64,000 bases of DNA from Candidatus Binataceae bacterium (GTDB lineage: Bacteria; Desulfobacterota; Binatia; Binatales; Binataceae): NCBI GenBank assembly GCA_015478645.1, contig JADMIL010000007.1, forward strand, positions 3,356 to 67,355, written 5' to 3'. The translations under genes and the position numbers were made by a program. Under the pieces are notes generated by a model. It worked only from the letters and a program-made list of their open reading frames with translations. It made no database searches and had not been told where the DNA came from. This document shows positions 15,563 to 64,000 of the stretch, piece by piece; position 1 is the first letter of the stretch, and the number at the start of each line of letters is the position of its first letter.

Positions 15563-16681
15563 TTACTTCTGGCTGAGCGCCCACGCGACGTCGGCCATCC
15601 GCGGCACGCGGCTGTCGTAGGTCGCGAACATCGGATCGTCGGCCTGCCCGCTCAGATAGCGCGCGTAGCTGCCCTCGGCGATGATCGCGAGCTTGAACAG
15701 CGAGAAGATTTCATAGAAGGCAAAGTCGCGCATCGTGCGGCCGGCCTTGCGTTCGTACAGATCGATCATCTCCTGGCGCGAGTAGTAGCCGCCGCCGGCT
15801 TCCATGCTCGAGACCACTTCGCGGCGGATCTCGTCGTCGCCCGGGTCGCTCCAGTAGGTGACCATCCAGCCGAGGTCGGCGAGCGGGTCGCCAATCGTCG
15901 ACATCTCCCAGTCGAACAGCGCGATGGGGCGCGGCTCGTCGCCCGCCGGATCCCACATCACGTTGTCGAGCTTGTAGTCGCCATGGACGATCGTCGCGGG
16001 CTGCGCTTGCGGCAGATGGGACTTGAGCCACGCCTGGATTTTGCCCATCACCGGCAGCGGGCGCGTGGCCGGAATCGTGCGCTCGAGCTGGTCGCTCCAG
16101 CGCCGCACCTGGCGCTCGATATAGCCGTCGGGACGGCCAAACCCCTCGAGGCCGGCGGCCCGCCATGCGACGCCTTGCAGCGTCACCAGCAGGTCCACCA
16201 TCCGCTCGCTGATCGCGCGCCGCTGCGCCGCCGTCTCGGCGAAGCTTTTTTCGCCCGACGGTATCAGGCCCGAACGGATCACCCGGCCGCGCATATACTC
16301 CATCAGCACGAACGGCGCGCCGATATAGGCCGGATCTTCGCAGCATGCATAGACGCGCGGCACCGGCACGGGCGTATTCTGCAGGGCCTTGAGCACGCGG
16401 TATTCGCGGACGACGTCGTGCGCGGTCGGCAGCAGCGGGCCGCGCGGCGGCCGGCGCAGGGCCCACGAATTGCCGTCGAAATGGATCAGGTGAACTTCAT
16501 TGGAATGACCGAACGAAATATTCTCGACGCGCATCTCGGCCGCGTCGCCCAGTCCGCCGTCGCGGATAAAGCGGCGCAGCCCGTGGATGTCGATGGTCGC
16601 CGAGGGGCCGGTTTTCTCGTTGCCTGTATCCACTATTGCCTGCCGTCCTGTGGCGCTTGCGCCGAATCCGGTCCCAATCAC
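15563..16681 (-). CDS. Phosphotransferase (APH/choline kinase-like) family protein
   Basis: The motifs FGHSNEV (GxSN) and HGDYKLDNVMW (HGD...N). GTG start. Confidence 0.75.
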   Translation of the reverse strand: MIGTGFGASATGRQAIVDTGNEKTGPSATIDIHGLRRFIRDGGLGDAAEMRVENISFGHSNEVHLIHFDGNSWALRRPPRGPLLPTAHDVVREYRVLKALQNTPVPVPRVYACCEDPAYIGAPFVLMEYMRGRVIRSGLIPSGEKSFAETAAQRRAISERMVDLLVTLQGVAWRAAGLEGFGRPDGYIERQVRRWSDQLERTIPATRPLPVMGKIQAWLKSHLPQAQPATIVHGDYKLDNVMWDPAGDEPRPIALFDWEMSTIGDPLADLGWMVTYWSDPGDDEIRREVVSSMEAGGGYYSRQEMIDLYERKAGRTMRDFAFYEIFSLFKLAIIAEGSYARYLSGQADDPMFATYDSRVPRMADVAWALSQK

Positions 16682-53795: not shown

Positions 53796-53867
53796 CTATG
53801 CAGTTCCGTCCTTGCCGGGGTGTGCCGCGGCCGCGCCGCGCCGATCGATCGCGCACAATTATGGCGA

Positions 53868-56407: not shown

Positions 56408-57601
56408 ATGCGGCAAGTCGGCTTGCGCGCGGTCTTCATGCGCGGCGGCACGAGCAAGGCGGTAATCTTCCGCGCCGCGGACTTGCCGCGCGATCGCGCG
56501 GATTGGACGCCAATCTTCCTCGGCGTGATCGGCAGCCCCGACCGCAACGGCCGCCAGCTTGACGGGATGGGCGGCGGGCTCTCGTCGCTCTCCAAAGTAT
56601 GCGTGGTCGGGCCGCCGAGCTGCGTGGACGCCGACGTCGATTACACCTTCGCGCAGGTCGCGATCGGCGACGCGGCGGTCGATTACAGCGGCAATTGCGG
56701 CAACATGTCGTCGGCGATCGGGCCGTTCGCGATCGATGAAGGAATCGTCGCGGCGGCGGCCGAAGGCGCGGCGACCGTGCGCATCCATAATACCAACACG
56801 CACAAGATCATCGTCGCGCGCTTTGCGGTCGCCGGCGGACGCGCCGCCGTCGATGGCGATTTCGTGCTGCCGGGCGTGGCTGGCACGGGCGCGCCAGTGC
56901 GCCTGGATTTTCTCGATCCGGGCGGCGCGGGCACCGGGCGGCTGCTGCCCACCGGCAATCCGTCCGATGAACTCGAAGTTCAGGTAAATCTACAAAATGG
57001 CACGACGGCGGCGGAACGCGTGACGGTCTCGATGGTCGATGCGGCGAATCCCTGCGTGTTCGTCGCGGCCGCGGCGCTCGGCGCGACCGGACTCGAGATG
57101 CCCGGCGAGCTCGAGGCGCGGCCCGAACTCCTGCGCCGGCTCGAGGCGATCCGGATTGCCGCGAGCCTGCGTATGGGAATCGCGCGCAGCGCCGCCGACG
57201 CGGCGCGCAAGCCCAGCATCCCCAAGGTCGCGATGGTCACCGGGCCGCGCGCCGCGACGACCCTGGCCGGCGATCGCCTCGCCGCGGACGACGCCGACCT
57301 GACCGTGCGCATGATCTCGATCGGCCAGCCGCATCGCGCGGTGCCGCTGACCGGCGCGATGTGCCTCGCGGTGGCGTCGCGGATCGATGGCAGCGTGGTC
57401 AATCGCCTCGCGCGGCGGCCCACCCCGCCCGCCGACGCGGTGCGGATTGCGCAGCCCTCGGGGCTGACCGTGGTCGGTGCGGCGGTGCGACCGATCGACG
57501 GTGGCTGGCACGCCGACCATGCGACGGTCTATCGGACCGCGCGCCGCCTGATGGAAGGAACGGTCTTCGTCCGCGCCGCCGCGTTCGCCGGCCTCGCATA
57601 A
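56408..57601 (+). CDS. PrpF-family isomerase (2-methylaconitate / 3-methylitaconate isomerase-like)
   Basis: The motifs VFMRGGTSKAVIF, GSPD..G.Q.DGMGGG and YSGNCGN are diagnostic of the PrpF/AcnD-accessory family. Confidence 0.8.
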   Translation: MRQVGLRAVFMRGGTSKAVIFRAADLPRDRADWTPIFLGVIGSPDRNGRQLDGMGGGLSSLSKVCVVGPPSCVDADVDYTFAQVAIGDAAVDYSGNCGNMSSAIGPFAIDEGIVAAAAEGAATVRIHNTNTHKIIVARFAVAGGRAAVDGDFVLPGVAGTGAPVRLDFLDPGGAGTGRLLPTGNPSDELEVQVNLQNGTTAAERVTVSMVDAANPCVFVAAAALGATGLEMPGELEARPELLRRLEAIRIAASLRMGIARSAADAARKPSIPKVAMVTGPRAATTLAGDRLAADDADLTVRMISIGQPHRAVPLTGAMCLAVASRIDGSVVNRLARRPTPPADAVRIAQPSGLTVVGAAVRPIDGGWHADHATVYRTARRLMEGTVFVRAAAFAGLA

Positions 57602-57814
57602 GCTGACCGCGTGACCCCGCAGCGATGCGGGATTCGGGCGGGCGGAACGGGCGCTGCGGACTGGCGGGTCCGGATTTGCTTGCATCGCGCGGCCCAGTTT
57701 GGGCAATCTCAAACCCTCATGGGGACGATTTTTCACAGCGCGGCGCGGACTGGCGGGTTTCACCTTCGAGCGGCGCGGGCAGTCGTGCCGGCCGGCCGCG
57801 CGGGCTAGATCGCG

Positions 57815-59395
57815 ATGGCCGCGGCACCTTCGCAAAACGCGTCGCCGCCGGAGCATGGGCCGGCCGCGGTCAACAAATGGTTGATCGCGGTCGCCGTGAT
57901 GCTCGCGACGATCATGGAGGTGCTCGACACCACCATCGCCAACGTCGCGCTGCTGCATATCCGCGGCAGCCTGTCGGCGGGCGTGGACGAGGCGGCGTGG
58001 GTGCTGACGTCGTACATCGTGGCCAACGCGATCGTGATCCCGCTGACCGGCTGGTGCGGCGCGTTCTTTGGCCGCAAGCGCTTCTTCACCTTCTCGATTC
58101 TGCTGTTCGTCACCAGCTCGCTGCTGGCCGGGGCGTCGCCCAACCTGCCGACGCTGATCTTCTTCCGCGTGCTCCAAGGGATCGGCGGTGGCGCGATGAT
58201 GCCAATGTCGCAGGCGATCCTGATGGAGACCTTTCCGCCCGAGCAGCAGGCGGTCGCGATGGCGGTGTGGGGCGTTGGCATGATGCTCGGGCCGGTGATG
58301 GGGCCGGTGCTCGGCGGATGGATCACCGACAACTACAGTTGGCGCTGGATCTTCTATATCAACGTGCCGATCGGACTGATCGCGGCGACCATGGTCGCGG
58401 TCTTCGTGCACGATCCGGATTACATCCGGCGCGGGATCAAGAAGATCGACTGGTGGGGCATCATCTTTCTGGCGATTGGCGTCGGGTTTATCCAGGTGAT
58501 GCTCGACAAGGGCGATCGGCTCGACTGGTTCAACTCCAAGCTGATCGTCGAGCTGACAGTCGTCGGCACCATCGGCGTGGCACTCTTTTTGATCCGCGAG
58601 ATGCGCACCCGGGAGCCGGTGGTCGATTTGCGAGTGCTCAACAATCGCACCTTCGCGGTCGGCACGGTCTTCACCACGATCGTGATGTTCGCGATGTACG
58701 GCACGTACGTGCTGATCCCGCTCTACTGCCAGCAAATCGCCGGTTACACGCCGCTGCAGGCGGGCTTCGTGCTGTCGATCCAGAGCTTCGGCACGTTCGC
58801 GTCGATCATGCTCGCCGGGCGCCTGTTCACGATGATGGATCCGCGCGTGCTGATCGCTGGCGGCTGCCTGATTGCGGGGTACGGCACGTGGGGGATGGCG
58901 AACTTCAATCCGCAGATCGATTTCTGGAATATCGCGATGCCCGGGATCTACCGCGGGATCGGCTCGGGCCTGATCTTCATCCCGATTACCACGCTGAGCC
59001 TGGGTGCCGTCTCGAACGAGGAGATGGGCAACGCGTCGGGGCTGTTCAACATGGTGCGGTCGGTGGGCGGCAGTATCGGGATTGCGATCCTGGTCGCGAT
59101 GGTCAGCCGGCATACGCAAATCCATCAGAGTTACCTGAGCGCGCGAATCGATCCGTTCCGCTTCCAGGAATGGAGCCATTCCAACCCCGGCATCACGGCC
59201 CAATACAACAGCTTCACCCTGCACGGGGCGGCGCCGTACCTGGGGATGATCTACCAGGAGGTGCAGCGCCAGGCGGCGATCCTGGCGTATGTCGACGACT
59301 TCCGGCTGATTTCCTATATTTTTCTGTTCCTGACGCCGCTCGCCTTTGTGATGCGGCGGCCGGCGAAGATGGGCGCCGCGCCGGCCGTGCATTGA
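57815..59395 (+). CDS. MFS transporter, DHA2 (EmrB/QacA) family, 14 TM
   Basis: N-terminal LIAVAVMLATIMEVLDTTIANVALLHI is typical of DHA2. Length 526 aa. Confidence 0.85.
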   Translation: MAAAPSQNASPPEHGPAAVNKWLIAVAVMLATIMEVLDTTIANVALLHIRGSLSAGVDEAAWVLTSYIVANAIVIPLTGWCGAFFGRKRFFTFSILLFVTSSLLAGASPNLPTLIFFRVLQGIGGGAMMPMSQAILMETFPPEQQAVAMAVWGVGMMLGPVMGPVLGGWITDNYSWRWIFYINVPIGLIAATMVAVFVHDPDYIRRGIKKIDWWGIIFLAIGVGFIQVMLDKGDRLDWFNSKLIVELTVVGTIGVALFLIREMRTREPVVDLRVLNNRTFAVGTVFTTIVMFAMYGTYVLIPLYCQQIAGYTPLQAGFVLSIQSFGTFASIMLAGRLFTMMDPRVLIAGGCLIAGYGTWGMANFNPQIDFWNIAMPGIYRGIGSGLIFIPITTLSLGAVSNEEMGNASGLFNMVRSVGGSIGIAILVAMVSRHTQIHQSYLSARIDPFRFQEWSHSNPGITAQYNSFTLHGAAPYLGMIYQEVQRQAAILAYVDDFRLISYIFLFLTPLAFVMRRPAKMGAAPAVH

Positions 59396-59646
59396 GCGGG
59401 CCGCAGCAGCCCGCGCCGTGGCCCGATCGGGTGAGCGTCGCGCGGCGGAATAGGCCAGCGTCGCGCAGCGCGTCCGGGAGTGCGTCGTGCCGCGAGATTG
59501 GCGCGGGATGGGTCGGGGCGAGCCTTGCTATGGTTCGCGCAGGATGGTACGCAAACGGCTCCCAGTGGGGGCAGGGCACGCGAGCGCGGTCGGGGGACGG
59601 CCTTGCGCCCGCTCTACACTTGGGATGAAGCGGAGAGTCTCGTCAA

Positions 59647-62073
59647 ATGGCGACTTCGAGCAGTAACGAGCCCTGGGGGCTGGGCAAGTACATTCTTCAG
59701 TATCGCGCGGCGATTGGCCTTACACTGATTGGCATCACGATCTTCATGGGCTATTGGGCGGCGAACGTGCGGATCGCGACCCGGTTCGAAAACTTCTTCC
59801 CGACCGGCCATCAAGACACCCTGCTGTATCATAAGTACCAGAATCAGTACGGCGGGGCGCAATCGCTCTATCTGCTGCTGAGGGTCAAGCACGGCGACAT
59901 CTTCAACTCGCAGACGCTGCACAAAATCCAGGACATCACGCGCGACGTCAATATACTGCCGGGCGTCGATCATAACGAAATCTTCTCGCTGGCTTCCTAT
60001 CGCGTTGCTTACAGCCACGCGATTCCGGGCGCGCTGATTTCGGACAACTACATGTATCCGAAGGTGCCCGACACGGCGGCCGGCGTCGAAGATCTGCGGC
60101 ACACCGTAATGGCGCATCGCGGTCCGGTCACGGGCCTGATTACCTACGACGACAAGGGTGCGCTGATTACCGCGACCTTTAACGAGCAGGGCCTCGACTA
60201 CAAGAAGCTGTTCGACGATATCCAGGGCATCATCAAAAAATACCAGGACGCCGACACGGAGATCTTCGTGGCGGGCCAGCCGGTCATCTCGGGCTGGGGC
60301 TATTACTACCTGACGCAGATCAAGGTGATTTTCCTCATCGCGATCACGCTGATGCTGATAATTCTCTATCTGAGCATCGGCGAACGCAGCAGTTGGTGGG
60401 CGCCCATCCTGACCGGCACCTTCTCGGCGATCTGGGGTCTCGGTTTCGTCAGCCTGATGGGCTACGACTTCGACCCGGTGATGCTGGTCATCCCGTTCAT
60501 CCTGACCGCGCGCGACTTGAGCCACGGGATCCAGTGGCAGGGGCGCTACTACGACGAGCTTGATCGGCTCGACGACAAGTTGCTGGCCTGCGCGACGACG
60601 ACCGATGTCATGCTGCCGCCGGGATTGCTCTCGATCCTGGCCGACATCGCGGGGATCATTTTCATCTCGTTCGGCGGGATCCCGGTGCTCAAGGAAATCG
60701 GCGTGGGCGGCGCGATGTGGCTGGCGGCCAGCCTCACGATGGTCTTCGTCTTCCAGCCGATCTTCATGAGCTATCTGCCGCGCCCGCGGATTCGCGAACG
60801 CAGTTGGCTGCGCCGGCGCCAGCTCAGCACGCGGCGGACGGTCTTCGGTTCGTTTGTCGACTGGGTGATCAGGATTCCGGTGACGCCGGGGGTCACGCGC
60901 ACTGCGCTGCTCGCCGGTGGCGCGCTGTTTATCGTCTTTGGCCTGGTATCGGGCCAGCGCGCGCGGATTGGCTATGAGACGCCGGGCACGCCGCTCTATC
61001 GGCAGGATTCCAAGGTCAACAAGGATATCGCGGTAATCGGCCAATACTTCCCGACCGACGTCGGGTGGGTGGTGATGTCGTCGCCGGACTATCCCGATCC
61101 GCAGTCCACGATCAGCCCGGCGGTGCTCCGGATGACCGACGATCTGGGCAACTATCTGGTGAGCCGGGGCGACGCGGTGGGCGTGATCTCGTTCGCCAAC
61201 GCCGGGATCATGCCGCTCAACATGATGTTCCACAACGGGTACCCGAAGTACCTGAGCATCCCGAACGGAACCGAGCTGGGCGGCAACCTGTGGTACATGT
61301 TCTGGGCGGGCACCGCGCCGGGCGAAATGGAGCGCTTCTTTGCCCATTCGCCGAAGATGACCAACGCGTGCATCCGCGTGTTGCTGCCGGATCATACCTA
61401 CTCGCGGCTCAACAAGGTGCGGGCCGATATCCAGCAATTCATCAACGAGCGGGTGAATACCGATCCCGCCCTGGCCAAGGTGAAACTGACCTACTTCGGT
61501 GGTGAAGCGGGCCTGTACCTGGCGGCCAACGACGTGCTCTACCGGCTGGATTTCATCAACCTGACGTTCGTGCTGCTGGTGATCTTTCTTTGCTGCGCGT
61601 TTACCTTCTGGTCGCCGACCGCCGGCGCGCTGTTTATCATCTCGTGCGTGATGGCAAATTTCGGCGCCTTCGTTTACATGAATGCGCGCAATATCGGCCT
61701 GACTATCGATACCATCCCGGTGATCTCGCTGGGGATCGGGCTCGGCGTCGATTACGGGATATACGTAGTCGCGCGAATTCGCGACGAGGTGATGGGTGGC
61801 GCGACCCTCGAGGACGCGATCACGACCGCGCTGCGATCGACCGGCGCGTCGGTCTTCAGCACCTTCGCGGTGATGATTGGCGGGATCGTGCCGTGGGCCT
61901 TTTCACCGCTGCTGTTCCACAACGAGATGAGCGTGCTGCTGATCTTCCTGATGGGCACCAACATGGTCGCCGGTGTGCTGATTCTGCCGGCGTACATCGC
62001 ATGGCGCCGTCCGCGCTTTATCATGCGCTACGCCAATCCGCCCCGCGCGGGCGCGAGTGCCGCGGCACTCTGA
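59647..62073 (+). CDS. RND-superfamily / MMPL-family membrane transporter (HpnN-like architecture)
   Basis: An 808-aa protein with two six-TM bundles, each preceded by a large periplasmic loop. A ggagag RBS. Confidence 0.8.
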   Translation: MATSSSNEPWGLGKYILQYRAAIGLTLIGITIFMGYWAANVRIATRFENFFPTGHQDTLLYHKYQNQYGGAQSLYLLLRVKHGDIFNSQTLHKIQDITRDVNILPGVDHNEIFSLASYRVAYSHAIPGALISDNYMYPKVPDTAAGVEDLRHTVMAHRGPVTGLITYDDKGALITATFNEQGLDYKKLFDDIQGIIKKYQDADTEIFVAGQPVISGWGYYYLTQIKVIFLIAITLMLIILYLSIGERSSWWAPILTGTFSAIWGLGFVSLMGYDFDPVMLVIPFILTARDLSHGIQWQGRYYDELDRLDDKLLACATTTDVMLPPGLLSILADIAGIIFISFGGIPVLKEIGVGGAMWLAASLTMVFVFQPIFMSYLPRPRIRERSWLRRRQLSTRRTVFGSFVDWVIRIPVTPGVTRTALLAGGALFIVFGLVSGQRARIGYETPGTPLYRQDSKVNKDIAVIGQYFPTDVGWVVMSSPDYPDPQSTISPAVLRMTDDLGNYLVSRGDAVGVISFANAGIMPLNMMFHNGYPKYLSIPNGTELGGNLWYMFWAGTAPGEMERFFAHSPKMTNACIRVLLPDHTYSRLNKVRADIQQFINERVNTDPALAKVKLTYFGGEAGLYLAANDVLYRLDFINLTFVLLVIFLCCAFTFWSPTAGALFIISCVMANFGAFVYMNARNIGLTIDTIPVISLGIGLGVDYGIYVVARIRDEVMGGATLEDAITTALRSTGASVFSTFAVMIGGIVPWAFSPLLFHNEMSVLLIFLMGTNMVAGVLILPAYIAWRRPRFIMRYANPPRAGASAAAL

Positions 62074-62351
62074 TCGCCCGCTCGCAAGAGTCAGTAGCGG
62101 TCTTGGTCGTTGGTACGCCGTCAATCGCGGCCGGCGATGGGGGTCGCGTCGGTGGCGATGCGTATTGACGTTGAGTGGCGTTTATACGGGACAATTAGCT
62201 AACTTGGCGTAGTTGGAAGGGACTGCTAGATGGGCCGGTCGCCGGCGCATCGCGGGCCGCGCGGTTGCGACCGCGAAGCGACGGCTATATCCTGTCGCTA
62301 CGCACTTTTTCACGTCAGCAAGCTGATTTTCAGCCGGAACAACTGAGCGAG

Positions 62352-62657
62352 TTGACTACGCCTGCGACAATTTCGATCGATTCGGTCGTGGCGGTTGCCG
62401 CGGATCAGATCTCGTGCGATCTCGACGGCGAGACGGCGATCCTCAATCTCAAGAGCGGCACCTATTACGGGCTCGATCCGGTGGGCGCGACGGTCTGGAG
62501 TCTGCTCGCGACGCCAACCACCGTGCGCGCGATCGCGGATTTGATGATCGAACGTTACGAGGTCGACCGCGCGCGCTGCGAACGCGACCTGATCGAACTG
62601 CTCGGCAAGCTCGCGGAGCGCGGCCTGATCGAGGTGCGCGATGGGCGCGCCGGCTAA
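62352..62657 (+). CDS. PqqD-family RiPP recognition protein (lasso peptide biosynthesis B1)
   Basis: The pattern ISCDLDGETAILNLKSGTYYGLDPVGATVWSLL...TVRAIADLMIERYEVD...LIELLGKLAERGLIEV matches PqqD. A TTG at 62352 gives about 101 aa. A TTG at 62265 is the alternative. Confidence 0.7.
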   Translation: MTTPATISIDSVVAVAADQISCDLDGETAILNLKSGTYYGLDPVGATVWSLLATPTTVRAIADLMIERYEVDRARCERDLIELLGKLAERGLIEVRDGRAG

Positions 62658-63168
62658 GTTGCTTGCGCTCGGGTGGCGTGATCGCGGCCTGCTAATGGCG
62701 GCGTCATGCGCGCTGGCGGGGGCGTGGATCGGGCTGCGCACGGCGGGCTTCGATGCGACGCAGCGGGCCGCCGCGGGCGCGCACAGGAGCCACGCGTGGT
62801 GCGGTCCGCCACCGCGCCGGCGGCGCATGCCGCCGTCGGCGGAGCGAATCGCATGGGCGGTGCGCGCGGCCGGCGAGTATCTTGCGGGGGGCGGCAATTG
62901 CCTGGTGCGCGCCCTGGCAACCCAGGCCCTGCTCACCCGGTACGGCTACTCCGCGCAATTGCGCATTGGCGTGCGCAAGGCGGACGACGGCGGGCTGGCG
63001 GCGCATGCCTGGCTGGAAGCGGGCGGCGCGATCGTAATTGGCGATTTCGCAATGGACGAATACACCGCGCTCGTCGCGCCCAGCGCGCGGCAGTCTGCGC
63101 TGGAACAGACCCCGGTGAGCGGCGGCAATCCGCCAGGCGGCATCGACGACACCCGTGGGGATCGCTAG
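62641..63168 (+). CDS. Lasso peptide biosynthesis B2 protein (transglutaminase-like leader peptidase)
   Basis: The motif GGGNCLVRALATQALL...AHAWLEAGGAIVIGD matches the Cys/His/Asp core of B2 proteases. It overlaps the B1 3' end by 17 nt. Confidence 0.75.
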   Translation: MGAPAKLLALGWRDRGLLMAASCALAGAWIGLRTAGFDATQRAAAGAHRSHAWCGPPPRRRRMPPSAERIAWAVRAAGEYLAGGGNCLVRALATQALLTRYGYSAQLRIGVRKADDGGLAAHAWLEAGGAIVIGDFAMDEYTALVAPSARQSALEQTPVSGGNPPGGIDDTRGDR

Positions 63169-63217
63169 GCGCCGACCGCCGATGGCGACGATCGACGAGC
63201 CGGACGCGGCCTGACGC

Positions 63218-64000
63218 ATGAGCGGTTTCGCCGTAATCCATCATCTGGACGGCCGCCCCGTGGAGCGCGGCACGCTCGAGCGGATGCTAGCCGCGATCGC
63301 CCATCGCGGACCCGACGGCCGCGGTATCTGGAGCGCGGGCGCGATCGCGATGGGCTTTGCGGCGTTCCATACGACGCCCGAGGCGGTGCACGAATCGCAG
63401 CCGCTGGCCGACGCGGCCGGGCGCATGCGGATCGTATTCGACGGACGGGTCGATAATCGCGAGGAGCTGGCGGCGGCGATCAGCGCCCGGGGCGCGGCGC
63501 CGCGCGACGACACCGACGCCGAGCTGGCGCTGTGCGCCTATCGATGCTTCGGCGACCAGGCTCCACTTAGAATTATCGGCGACTTCGCCTTCGTGGTGTG
63601 GGACGCCGAGCGGCGCGAACTGTTTTGCGCGCGCGATCCGATCGGGATCCGCATGTTCCATTACTGGTGCGACGGCCGCACGTTCGTGGCCGCGACCGAA
63701 CTACAGCAACTCTTCGAATATCCGGGAATGCCGGCCGAGCCCGACGAGGGCGTCGTCGGCGAGTACCTGGCGGGCACGCTGATGGGACGCGAGGCGACGC
63801 TGTTTCGCGGCCTCAAGCGGCTCCCCGCGGCCCATCTGATGGTGGTGCGCGGCGACGGTCCGCGGGTGCGGCGATATTTCGATCTGCTGCCGCGCGAATC
63901 GATAACCTATCGCGACGATACCGAGTATGCCGAGCATTTCCGCGGCCTGTTTGCCGAGGCGGTGCGATGCCGGATGCGCAGCGTGGGCGGCGTCGGCGCG
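63218..64000 (+). CDS. Lasso peptide isopeptide bond-forming cyclase (asparagine synthetase B-like); 3' end truncated by window edge
   Basis: An ATG at 63218 opens an ORF in frame 2 to the end of the window. It is absent from the ORF track because it has no stop. The AsnB N-terminal domain pattern is MSGFAVIHHLDG...AHRGPDG...DGRVDN...YLAG. Confidence 0.7.
   Translation, partial: MSGFAVIHHLDGRPVERGTLERMLAAIAHRGPDGRGIWSAGAIAMGFAAFHTTPEAVHESQPLADAAGRMRIVFDGRVDNREELAAAISARGAAPRDDTDAELALCAYRCFGDQAPLRIIGDFAFVVWDAERRELFCARDPIGIRMFHYWCDGRTFVAATELQQLFEYPGMPAEPDEGVVGEYLAGTLMGREATLFRGLKRLPAAHLMVVRGDGPRVRRYFDLLPRESITYRDDTEYAEHFRGLFAEAVRCRMRSVGGVGA

Follow-up and report, generated by a model that had tools for sequence, protein, structure and literature searches.

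A lasso peptide maturation operon lies at the 3' end of the 64,000-nucleotide stretch of DNA analysed here (the window), which comes from an uncultured Binataceae bacterium. Taken as a whole, our results make it likely that positions 62352–64000 are the 5' half of a six-gene operon of this kind, that the precursor gene once encoded in cis has been lost in this lineage, and that the other genes remain intact under purifying selection.

Gene content and layout of the operon

Profile HMMs identified three consecutive plus-strand genes at the 3' end of the window, B1, B2 and C, with matches to PqqD (PF05402), to the lasso B2 protease (PF13471/NF033537) and to the lasso cyclase (NF033535, the best NCBIfam match, below its cut-off). 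The truncated B1-B2-C lasso cluster that a preliminary description of this DNA had claimed for its 3' edge is thereby confirmed.

The product of B1 (62352–62657, plus strand, 101 aa) is the PqqD-like RiPP recognition element (RRE) protein that it had been taken for: it scores 74.4 bits against PF05402 (cut-off 23.4), and its best NCBIfam match, NF033536 (lasso_PqqD_Bac), lies at 70.7 bits, just below the cut-off of 80. The cluster had been said to begin at 62265, a position that marks just the beginning of the longest possible ORF, and the public annotation begins B1 at a GTG at 62388 (89 aa). Because relatives share an ISLDS(I/V)V N-terminus and have in-frame stops just upstream of it (from 2 codons before the B1 start in locus L005 to ~18 codons in L006/L007), we place the probable start at TTG 62352. 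That N-terminal motif and an AILNLK.G.Y.GLD core are conserved in 6 loci. The preceding conserved block (62265–62351, plus strand), which lies outside B1, probably represents the operon's promoter and 5' UTR. Against the related locus L003 it is ~97% identical, whereas indels and many mismatches interrupt the preceding 190 nt; its GGTTGCG-N(15-17)-CTATAT motif is common to L005 and L006/L007. Since a scan of 61900–62700 for consensus sigma-70 promoters and terminators found nothing, the promoter is one that we infer.

B2 (62641–63168, plus strand, 175 aa) encodes a transglutaminase-like leader peptidase, matching NF033537 (lasso_biosyn_B2) at 92.1 bits (cut-off 33) and PF13471 at 84.8 bits. 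Both motifs by which it had been recognized, GNCLVRAL and AHAWLE, are found, and 7 homologues all retain Asn86-Cys87 and His122. The reported 17-nt overlap with B1 (62641–62657) is correct; the spacing between B2 and C had been given as 50 nt and is 49 nt with C starting at 63218.

C (63218–64000, plus strand) encodes a lasso macrolactam synthetase and, as described, runs off the window, which holds residues 1–261 of 644 and ends three residues short of the ATP-binding motif SGGVDS at residue 264; the full sequence was taken from the public contig L001 (see below). It matches NF033535, the lasso isopeptide-forming cyclase model, at 441.5 bits (curated cut-off 525). The reading of this ORF as an ordinary asparagine synthetase, with the PqqD and transglutaminase genes as unrelated neighbours, could appeal to its matches to PF00733, PF13537 and PF13522 (PF00733 and GATase domains being common to AsnB) and to a TIGR01536 score of 248.2 bits, but it is effectively refuted by that score falling below the cut-off of 267.1 and under the lasso cyclase score, by the N-terminus MSGF, in which Ser2 takes the place of the catalytic glutaminase Cys2 of asparagine synthase B, and by the recurrence of the order B1-B2-C-(A)-K, where A is the precursor gene, in dozens of loci bearing lasso precursors.

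Extension of the locus in the 3' direction, as the preliminary description had proposed, used L001 (GCA_027317005.1, Ca. Binataceae), which is 100% identical to the window across a 3801-nt overlap. It recovered the whole of C and, downstream of it and outside the window, a kinase-like gene (K), a nucleotidyltransferase gene (N) and the ABC exporter gene (D), but no A gene. The full order across the window and L001 is therefore B1-B2-C-K-N-D. Translational coupling, which had been claimed for B1, B2 and C together, is plausible only for B1/B2 and for C/K, which overlap by 8 nt in the window lineage, because B2 and C lie 49 nt apart. An Rfam search of 57000–64000 gave 0 matches.

By motif and predicted fold, K appears to be a divergent HPrK/PEPCK-type peptide kinase. 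It has the invariant pattern LHAT...GxAGTGKSTLAA...CDDC, whose LHAT, GKS and CDDC elements correspond to a His-Lys-Asp-Asp motif described in lasso kinases (PMC9266682). A profile of K homologues matches the Hpr(Ser) kinase 3tqf (E=8.8e-4), and an AlphaFold model of K (pLDDT 91) matches PEP carboxykinases (E=1e-7). All public copies of K are named ‘hypothetical protein’. Pfam, including PF07475, gave no match to K, which scores 27.5 bits against TIGR04352 (cut-off 200) and lies below every curated family cut-off; this, together with the NF033535 and NF033536 scores below theirs, counts against our preferred explanation. N is a PsmN-like NTP_transf_5 protein (PF14907, 176 bits) with a DLD motif, and D is an ABC permease/ATPase fusion (PF00005 and PF00664).

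These results establish which genes are present, with the kinase identity of K probable, how the operon is ordered and which catalytic motifs it carries. By analogy with characterised homologues, B1 would bind the YxxPxL leader of a precursor peptide through its RRE; K, a P-loop kinase of HPrK/PEPCK fold, would phosphorylate a precursor Ser or Thr with the assistance of B1; B2, a Cys-His protease, would cut off the leader; C would adenylate an Asp/Glu side chain and then close the macrolactam ring around the tail; N would decorate the phosphate; and D would export the product.

Loss of the precursor gene

Between C and K, sister loci retain a precursor gene that has been lost from the window lineage. 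Using as criterion a YxxPxL...Thr(-2) leader followed by a core with Asp/Glu at position 7–9, we found no precursor gene in the 64-kb window and 12 kb downstream by regular expression, tblastn or a 149-sequence precursor HMM (no HMM match at E<1). The earlier statement that neither A nor D is visible in the window therefore holds for A over this longer distance; D is present downstream on L001. The same HMM found nothing at E<1 in L003, L005, L006, L007, L010, L012, L014 or L015, and finds A at ~E=1e-15 in L008, L009, L011 and L013, where a canonical A lies between C and K (L008/L009, L011, L013). Besides the window, 8 loci lack A, 7 of them independent (9 and 8 with the window counted). Because the A-less loci form one clade, sister to L008, a single loss of the precursor gene is the most parsimonious history.

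The A-bearing Binataceae loci L008/L016 share the window's neighbourhood (TcuA, PrpF, EmrB-type MFS and MMPL, then B1-B2-C...K-N-D), and their proteins are orthologous to those of the window at 45–57% identity. They differ in carrying a 60-aa A gene within a 566-nt C-K spacer, as opposed to the 8-nt C/K overlap of the window lineage; across the A-less loci C and K show either an 8-nt overlap or a gap of 39–82 nt. The L008/L016 peptide is named ‘lasso RiPP family leader peptide-containing protein’ by NCBI, and the L008-type precursor core is AKGTSVDTNGGQGFNKHPYG.

Several candidates for A were examined and rejected. Extension of B1 from 62265 into an A-B1 fusion is contradicted by the stops upstream of B1 in relatives and by the resemblance of the block to a promoter and UTR. 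A 360-nt insert between D and HtrA in L003 is a fragment of a pyrophosphatase gene that is intact in L015. A candidate at 70511–70693 (minus strand), with a Ser at its end, overlaps HtrA, has an Arg/Ala-rich leader that looks off-frame and is without HMM support; another, at 53797 (plus strand), forms the end of a long spurious ORF overlapping genes of the minus strand.

With no precursor at the locus the substrate is missing, and a lasso product therefore cannot be asserted. A word-indexed search for a precursor encoded in trans returned 12 peptides, all of the L008/L011 type. Scanning 1.84 billion representatives with the precursor HMM yielded 203 matches, of which the closest new one, P0133, again lies in a C-A-K context. 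A metagenome scan gave 37 precursor loci, none with readable context being unlinked to C; A directly follows C in 35 of the 35 whose context could be read.

Selection on the remaining genes and possible substrates

The remaining cluster genes are intact and under purifying selection. Against L003, dN/dS is 0.16–0.29 across the cluster genes (0.165 for B1, 0.225 for B2), and against L005, L006 and L012 it is 0.20–0.39. The window locus, L003, L005, L006/L007 and L012 all have six intact ORFs, the four present on L015 are likewise intact, and no variation occurs in the catalytic motifs of B2, C, K and N. The sole fragmented copy, L010, points to assembly error, since its housekeeping MMPL gene is broken too.

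The most likely reading, which we hold tentatively, is that the operon still functions, with its precursor coming from a gene at another site in the genome. Against it stand the 35 of 35 loci with readable context in which A is in cis (no trans-encoded precursor was seen in the family) and the selection measured on C, K and N. In the A-less clade their dN/dS is 0.20–0.31, 0.23–0.32 and 0.31–0.39, respectively, 2–3 times the values of 0.085, 0.14 and 0.16 in L008/L018, the one A-bearing pair measured, at similar dS. The higher ratios fit relaxed constraint after precursor loss.

The main rival is a slowly decaying relic, in which this Binataceae clade descends from an ancestor that lost the precursor gene by deletion and now retains maturation genes that no longer function. 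This would account for the nine clade loci, the window included, that have no precursor in cis, for the raised dN/dS of C, K and N, for the want of any known trans precursor in the family, and for the identity between A-less clade members, which is 54–68% for the cluster proteins as against 79–81% for the flanking MFS and MMPL. We nevertheless regard it as rather unlikely, given that the ORFs are intact across a clade whose more distant members differ by ~1 synonymous substitution per site, that dN/dS (0.16–0.39) is far under 1, that the catalytic motifs do not vary, and that the fragmentation of L010 is better laid to assembly.

We give little credence to a cis precursor too short or too divergent to recognise, for example one without the YxxPxL / Thr(-2) leader. 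Leaders with Ile(-2) and Val(-2) do occur in kinase-type clusters (PMC10368454), and a 38-aa ORF at 62230–62346 has a Shine-Dalgarno-like GGAAGGGA and stops 6 nt upstream of B1. This ORF, however, has no Asp/Glu in its C-terminal half for ring closure, its ATG is out of frame in L003 owing to a 4-nt indel, and L005 and L006 lack any equivalent of it. A relaxed search allowing any residue at -2 gave only off-frame artefacts, no small ORF in the intergenic regions is conserved across relatives, and it is in these regions that the window and L003 diverge most.

Equally improbable is the recruitment of the enzymes to a non-lasso substrate, either a larger protein or an RRE-sharing peptide of another RiPP class. 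Purifying selection that continues without a cis precursor would be consistent with it, and the precursor profile matches repeated segments of some large proteins, such as P0139 (1389 aa, 9 stretches). Against it, B1, B2 and C keep all canonical lasso-enzyme features and have orthologues that adjoin a canonical precursor.

It is possible that, once its cis precursor was deleted, this Binataceae lineage as a whole went on keeping its genes for maturation, tailoring and export intact under purifying selection. If the operon is indeed kept without a cis precursor, either a regular precursor acts in trans, as seen in 0 of the 35 context-bearing loci, or lasso enzymes act on a new substrate.

Relation to characterised clusters

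The arrangement B1-B2-C-K-N-D is an already known phosphorylated-lasso-peptide cluster type (paeninodin, pseudomycoidin, Bsf). Lasso clusters with K, N and D have been described (PMC6993621, PMC10368454). The pseudomycoidin cluster (psm) of Bacillus pseudomycoides, ordered psmC-A-K-B1-B2-N-D (PMC6993621), shares with the window operon split B1/B2 proteins, C, an ABC exporter D and an uncharacterised NTP_transf_5-type N in which a DxD motif is present, and its HPrK-type kinase has a probable counterpart in K. The window operon differs from it in gene order, in having no precursor gene, in its uncultured Binataceae host and in a K too divergent for Pfam Hpr_kinase_C.

Among the papers covered by a full-text search, none named both Binat* and lasso peptides. 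The operon extends the host range of kinase/nucleotidyltransferase-type lasso clusters to an uncultured phylum. K, which motif and fold would make an HPrK/PEPCK-type peptide kinase, belongs to a large family annotated only as ‘hypothetical’, of which a candidate-limited search returned at least 626 homologues at E≤1e-5. The precursor-less clade offers a natural test of whether lasso enzymes can persist with a trans-encoded precursor and, for genome mining, a case in which the enzymes alone flag a lasso cluster, yet no product can be assigned.

Paeninodin (Pade) and Thco are likewise kinase-associated lasso clusters with split B proteins (PMC9266682), as is Bsf of Bradymonas sediminis, whose BsfK phosphorylates the ring-region Ser3 with B1 assisting (PMC10368454). 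They share the split B proteins and, probably, the kinase with the locus described here and differ from it in that the window locus has no precursor at all. Comparison of the peptides themselves is afforded by the sister clade. Its precursors end in Gly, in contrast to the C-terminal Ser that PsmK modifies in psm, and they keep Thr(-2) in the leader where Bsf has Ile(-2). Their predicted ring comprises 7 residues, from position 1 (Ala, Gln or Lys) to Asp7, and the cores have a conserved Thr4 and Ser/Thr5 that could serve as acceptor in the manner of Bsf Ser3.

The operon at the window's 3' end

An ORF listing and the raw sequence show that three successive ORFs on the plus strand close the window at its 3' end; a preliminary description had claimed here, from sequence alone, a truncated lasso-peptide cluster (62265-64000). 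Profile matches to PqqD, lasso B2 and lasso cyclase models bore this out. B1 belongs to the PqqD family (PF05402, 74.4 bits), with lasso_PqqD_Bac as its top NCBIfam model (NF033536, 70.7 bits, cut-off 80). B2 is a lasso B2 protease (NF033537, 92.1 bits, cut-off 33; PF13471, 84.8 bits) that contains the GNCLVRAL and AHAWLE motifs quoted for it, and its Cys87 and His122 are invariant in an alignment of seven homologues. C is asparagine-synthetase-like; NF033535, the model for lasso isopeptide-forming cyclases, ranks first (441.5 bits, cut-off 525), and C scores 248 bits against the genuine asparagine synthase model TIGR01536 (cut-off 267). SGGVDS is present at residue 264, and the N-terminus, MSGF, carries a serine in place of the glutaminase nucleophile Cys2. 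Given the profile matches and the missing Cys2, the three-gene observation is confirmed.

Two boundaries required adjustment. Position 62265, previously taken as the start of B1, merely begins the maximal ORF; the start is most likely TTG 62352 (giving 101 aa), because relatives share an N-terminal ISLDS(I/V)V segment and carry stop codons just 5' of it. B2 and C are adjacent as described, with C beginning at 63218 after a gap of 49 rather than 50 nt; residues 1-261 of 644 fall inside the window.

Looking up the exact B2 protein led to a public contig (DAHVFM010000036.1, GCA_027317005.1; L001/L014) identical to the window across 3801 overlapping bases, which supplied the full 644-residue C and an exporter further 3'. 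Downstream of C lie K (328 aa, no Pfam match, sharing its first 8 nt with C), N (a 431-aa NTP_transf_5 protein; PF14907, 176 bits) and D (a 613-aa ABC permease/ATPase), followed by unrelated genes (HtrA, DUF1329, SnoaL, CoA-transferase, EthD and others). The locus is a genuine lasso maturation operon, of a subtype already known, that is cut by the window edge; in full it includes an exporter and two tailoring enzymes and lacks a precursor in cis.

A structure search with the AlphaFold model of K (pLDDT 91.4) matched PEP carboxykinases at E=1e-7, a fold superfamily that also includes HPr kinase. The K family profile matched the Hpr(Ser) kinase 3tqf at E=8.8e-4, with PEP carboxykinases weaker; K did not reach curated models (TIGR04352, 27.5 bits, cut-off 200), and every public copy is labelled 'hypothetical protein'. 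Alignments of first seven and later 42 homologues both contained an invariant LHAT ... GxAGTGKSTLAA ... CDDC pattern, corresponding to the His-Lys-Asp-Asp motif reported for lasso-peptide kinases (PMC9266682). Our reading of K is a divergent peptide kinase of the HPrK type. With K, N and D together, the operon fits the known cluster type for phosphorylated lasso peptides, from which the pseudomycoidin proteins PsmK and PsmN (PMC6993621) and BsfK and BsfN (PMC10368454) have been described; lasso clusters of this kinase/nucleotidyltransferase type are already established. Full-text searching of one literature collection turned up no paper mentioning Binat* together with lasso peptides.

The annotated start of D (region L001 7306-7390, equivalent to window positions 67505-67590) gives a protein of 613 aa, but homologues are 596 aa long. 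In L003, a Candidatus Binataceae locus with 94.6% nucleotide identity to that of the window, an apparent anomaly in D length reflects a 5-nt deletion only 33 nt past the annotated start, which makes an internal start (MNGKVVAFF...) probable and a better fit, the annotated one probably lying too far upstream. An inorganic pyrophosphatase gene between D and HtrA is intact in L015 (6489-7016), survives in L003 as a 360-nt fragment (16181-16543) and is wholly deleted in the window's genome (equivalent position ~69415), a pattern that looks like stepwise gene loss beside the cluster.

Absence of the precursor gene

The search for an A gene yielded no candidate: the window plus extension contained no Thr(-2)/Asp-Glu(7-9) pattern, no YxxPxL leader and nothing similar to known precursors of the family. 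An HMM of 149 family members matched the A genes of precursor-bearing loci (L008/L009, L011) at about E=1e-15 and had no match at E<1 in the window, the extension or eight other precursor-less loci.

A 38-aa plus-strand ORF (62230-62346; MGRSPAHRGPRGCDREATAISCRYALFHVSKLIFSRNN) was rejected as a precursor. A 4-nt indel in L003 puts its ATG out of frame, and in frame with B1; L005 and L006 lack a conserved counterpart of the ORF, and the stretch 62130-62260 is divergent from L003, with many indels. The ORF is preceded by a Shine-Dalgarno-like GGAAGGGA and stops 6 nt short of B1. The conserved plus-strand block at 62265-62351 carries a GGTTGCG...CTATAT motif common to distant relatives and would most simply be a promoter and 5' UTR, because relatives sharing the motif have in-frame stops upstream of B1; a promoter consensus scan of this region was negative.

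The order B1-B2-C-K-N-D, with no precursor and with C and K overlapping or at most 82 nt apart, recurs in L005, L006/L007, L010, L012 and L015. C is 61-70% identical to that of the window in all of these except L015, which is known from K alone (79% identical). Each of N, D and MMPL is fragmented in L010 (ENA ERZ25039604 contig_117476), probably by long-read assembly frameshift error rather than pseudogenisation, since the housekeeping MMPL gene is also split.

A short gene lies between C and K in L008/L009 and L011 (C 53% and 49% identical to the window's, respectively), at L008 12232-12414 and L011 12094-12261. Both encode textbook leaders: Y-Q-T-P-T-I-T-D-Y-G-D-V-T-R-L-T-Q before core AKGTSVDTNGGQGFNKHPYG in L008, and Y-K-A-P-R-L-I-E-Y-G-S-V-T-K-I-T-A before KPGTRTDSS... 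in L011. One family peptide carries the NCBI name 'lasso RiPP family leader peptide-containing protein [Candidatus Binataceae bacterium]'. A precursor-profile scan of JGI metagenomes yielded 37 loci, of which 35 have readable context; in every one of these 35, A lies directly 3' of C, often with K next. The precursor-less loci group as a single clade when C proteins are placed on a neighbour-joining tree, sister to L008 and with L011 outside, and because of this grouping a single deletion of A would be the parsimonious explanation.

Selection and possible function

The window, L003, L005, L006/L007 and L012 each retain the six ORFs intact, and the four present on L015 are intact as well. Nei-Gojobori dN/dS against L003 was 0.165 (B1), 0.225 (B2), 0.159 (C), 0.168 (K) and 0.294 (N), and against L005, L006 and L012 it was 0.20-0.39 at dS of about 1. 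The precursor-bearing pair L008/L018 gave lower values at similar dS (C 0.085, K 0.143, N 0.161); all these values are rough, with dS near saturation and one such pair. From intact ORFs and low ratios, set against the lower values in L008/L018, we infer purifying selection, with constraint possibly relaxed.

We tentatively favor continued activity of the operon on a precursor encoded at another locus; a search of protein collections for such a peptide returned only peptides in C-A-K contexts again. That the operon is instead a slowly decaying relic seems somewhat less likely: the lower L008/L018 ratios and the greater divergence of the cluster proteins (54-68% identity, against 79-81% for flanking MFS and MMPL in the same genomes) fit relaxed constraint, but the ORFs are intact across clade members at dN/dS of 0.159-0.39. 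An unrecognised precursor in cis is improbable, and recruitment of the enzymes to another substrate is similarly doubtful. Loss of the precursor throughout the lineage is of modest interest, and what it means would hinge on a genome-wide precursor scan.

Sister-clade peptides and the upstream neighborhood

The sister-clade precursors (including proteins P0121-P0160) have a predicted 7-residue ring from residue 1 to Asp7, and core position 1 is unusually variable (Ala, Gln or an atypical Lys). A widespread related family has the core form KPG(S/T)RxDG...GDKGxG(S/A). Some family hits (P0134, P0135, P0220) contain two tandem leader-motif copies, and in several very large proteins of up to 2988 aa (P0139, 1389 aa; P0156, P0168, P0179, P0206, P0280) the YG.V..LT part of the profile matched in 5-9 separate stretches.

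The genes upstream of the cluster (TcuA-like, PrpF-like, EmrB-type MFS transporter, HAE3/MMPL transporter) are syntenic in all Binataceae loci, including precursor-bearing L008, and absent in L011; we treated them as conserved genome backbone outside the cluster. Between the MFS (57815-59395) and MMPL (59647-62073) genes lies a non-coding block of about 105 nt (59522-59625) that is nearly invariant in six Binataceae loci, where the flanking proteins are about 75-80% identical. It has no Rfam match, and RNAalifold predicted a long, imperfect hairpin with 34 pairs, of which 6 show compensatory changes; the block is a candidate leader RNA for cis-regulation of the MMPL transporter gene.
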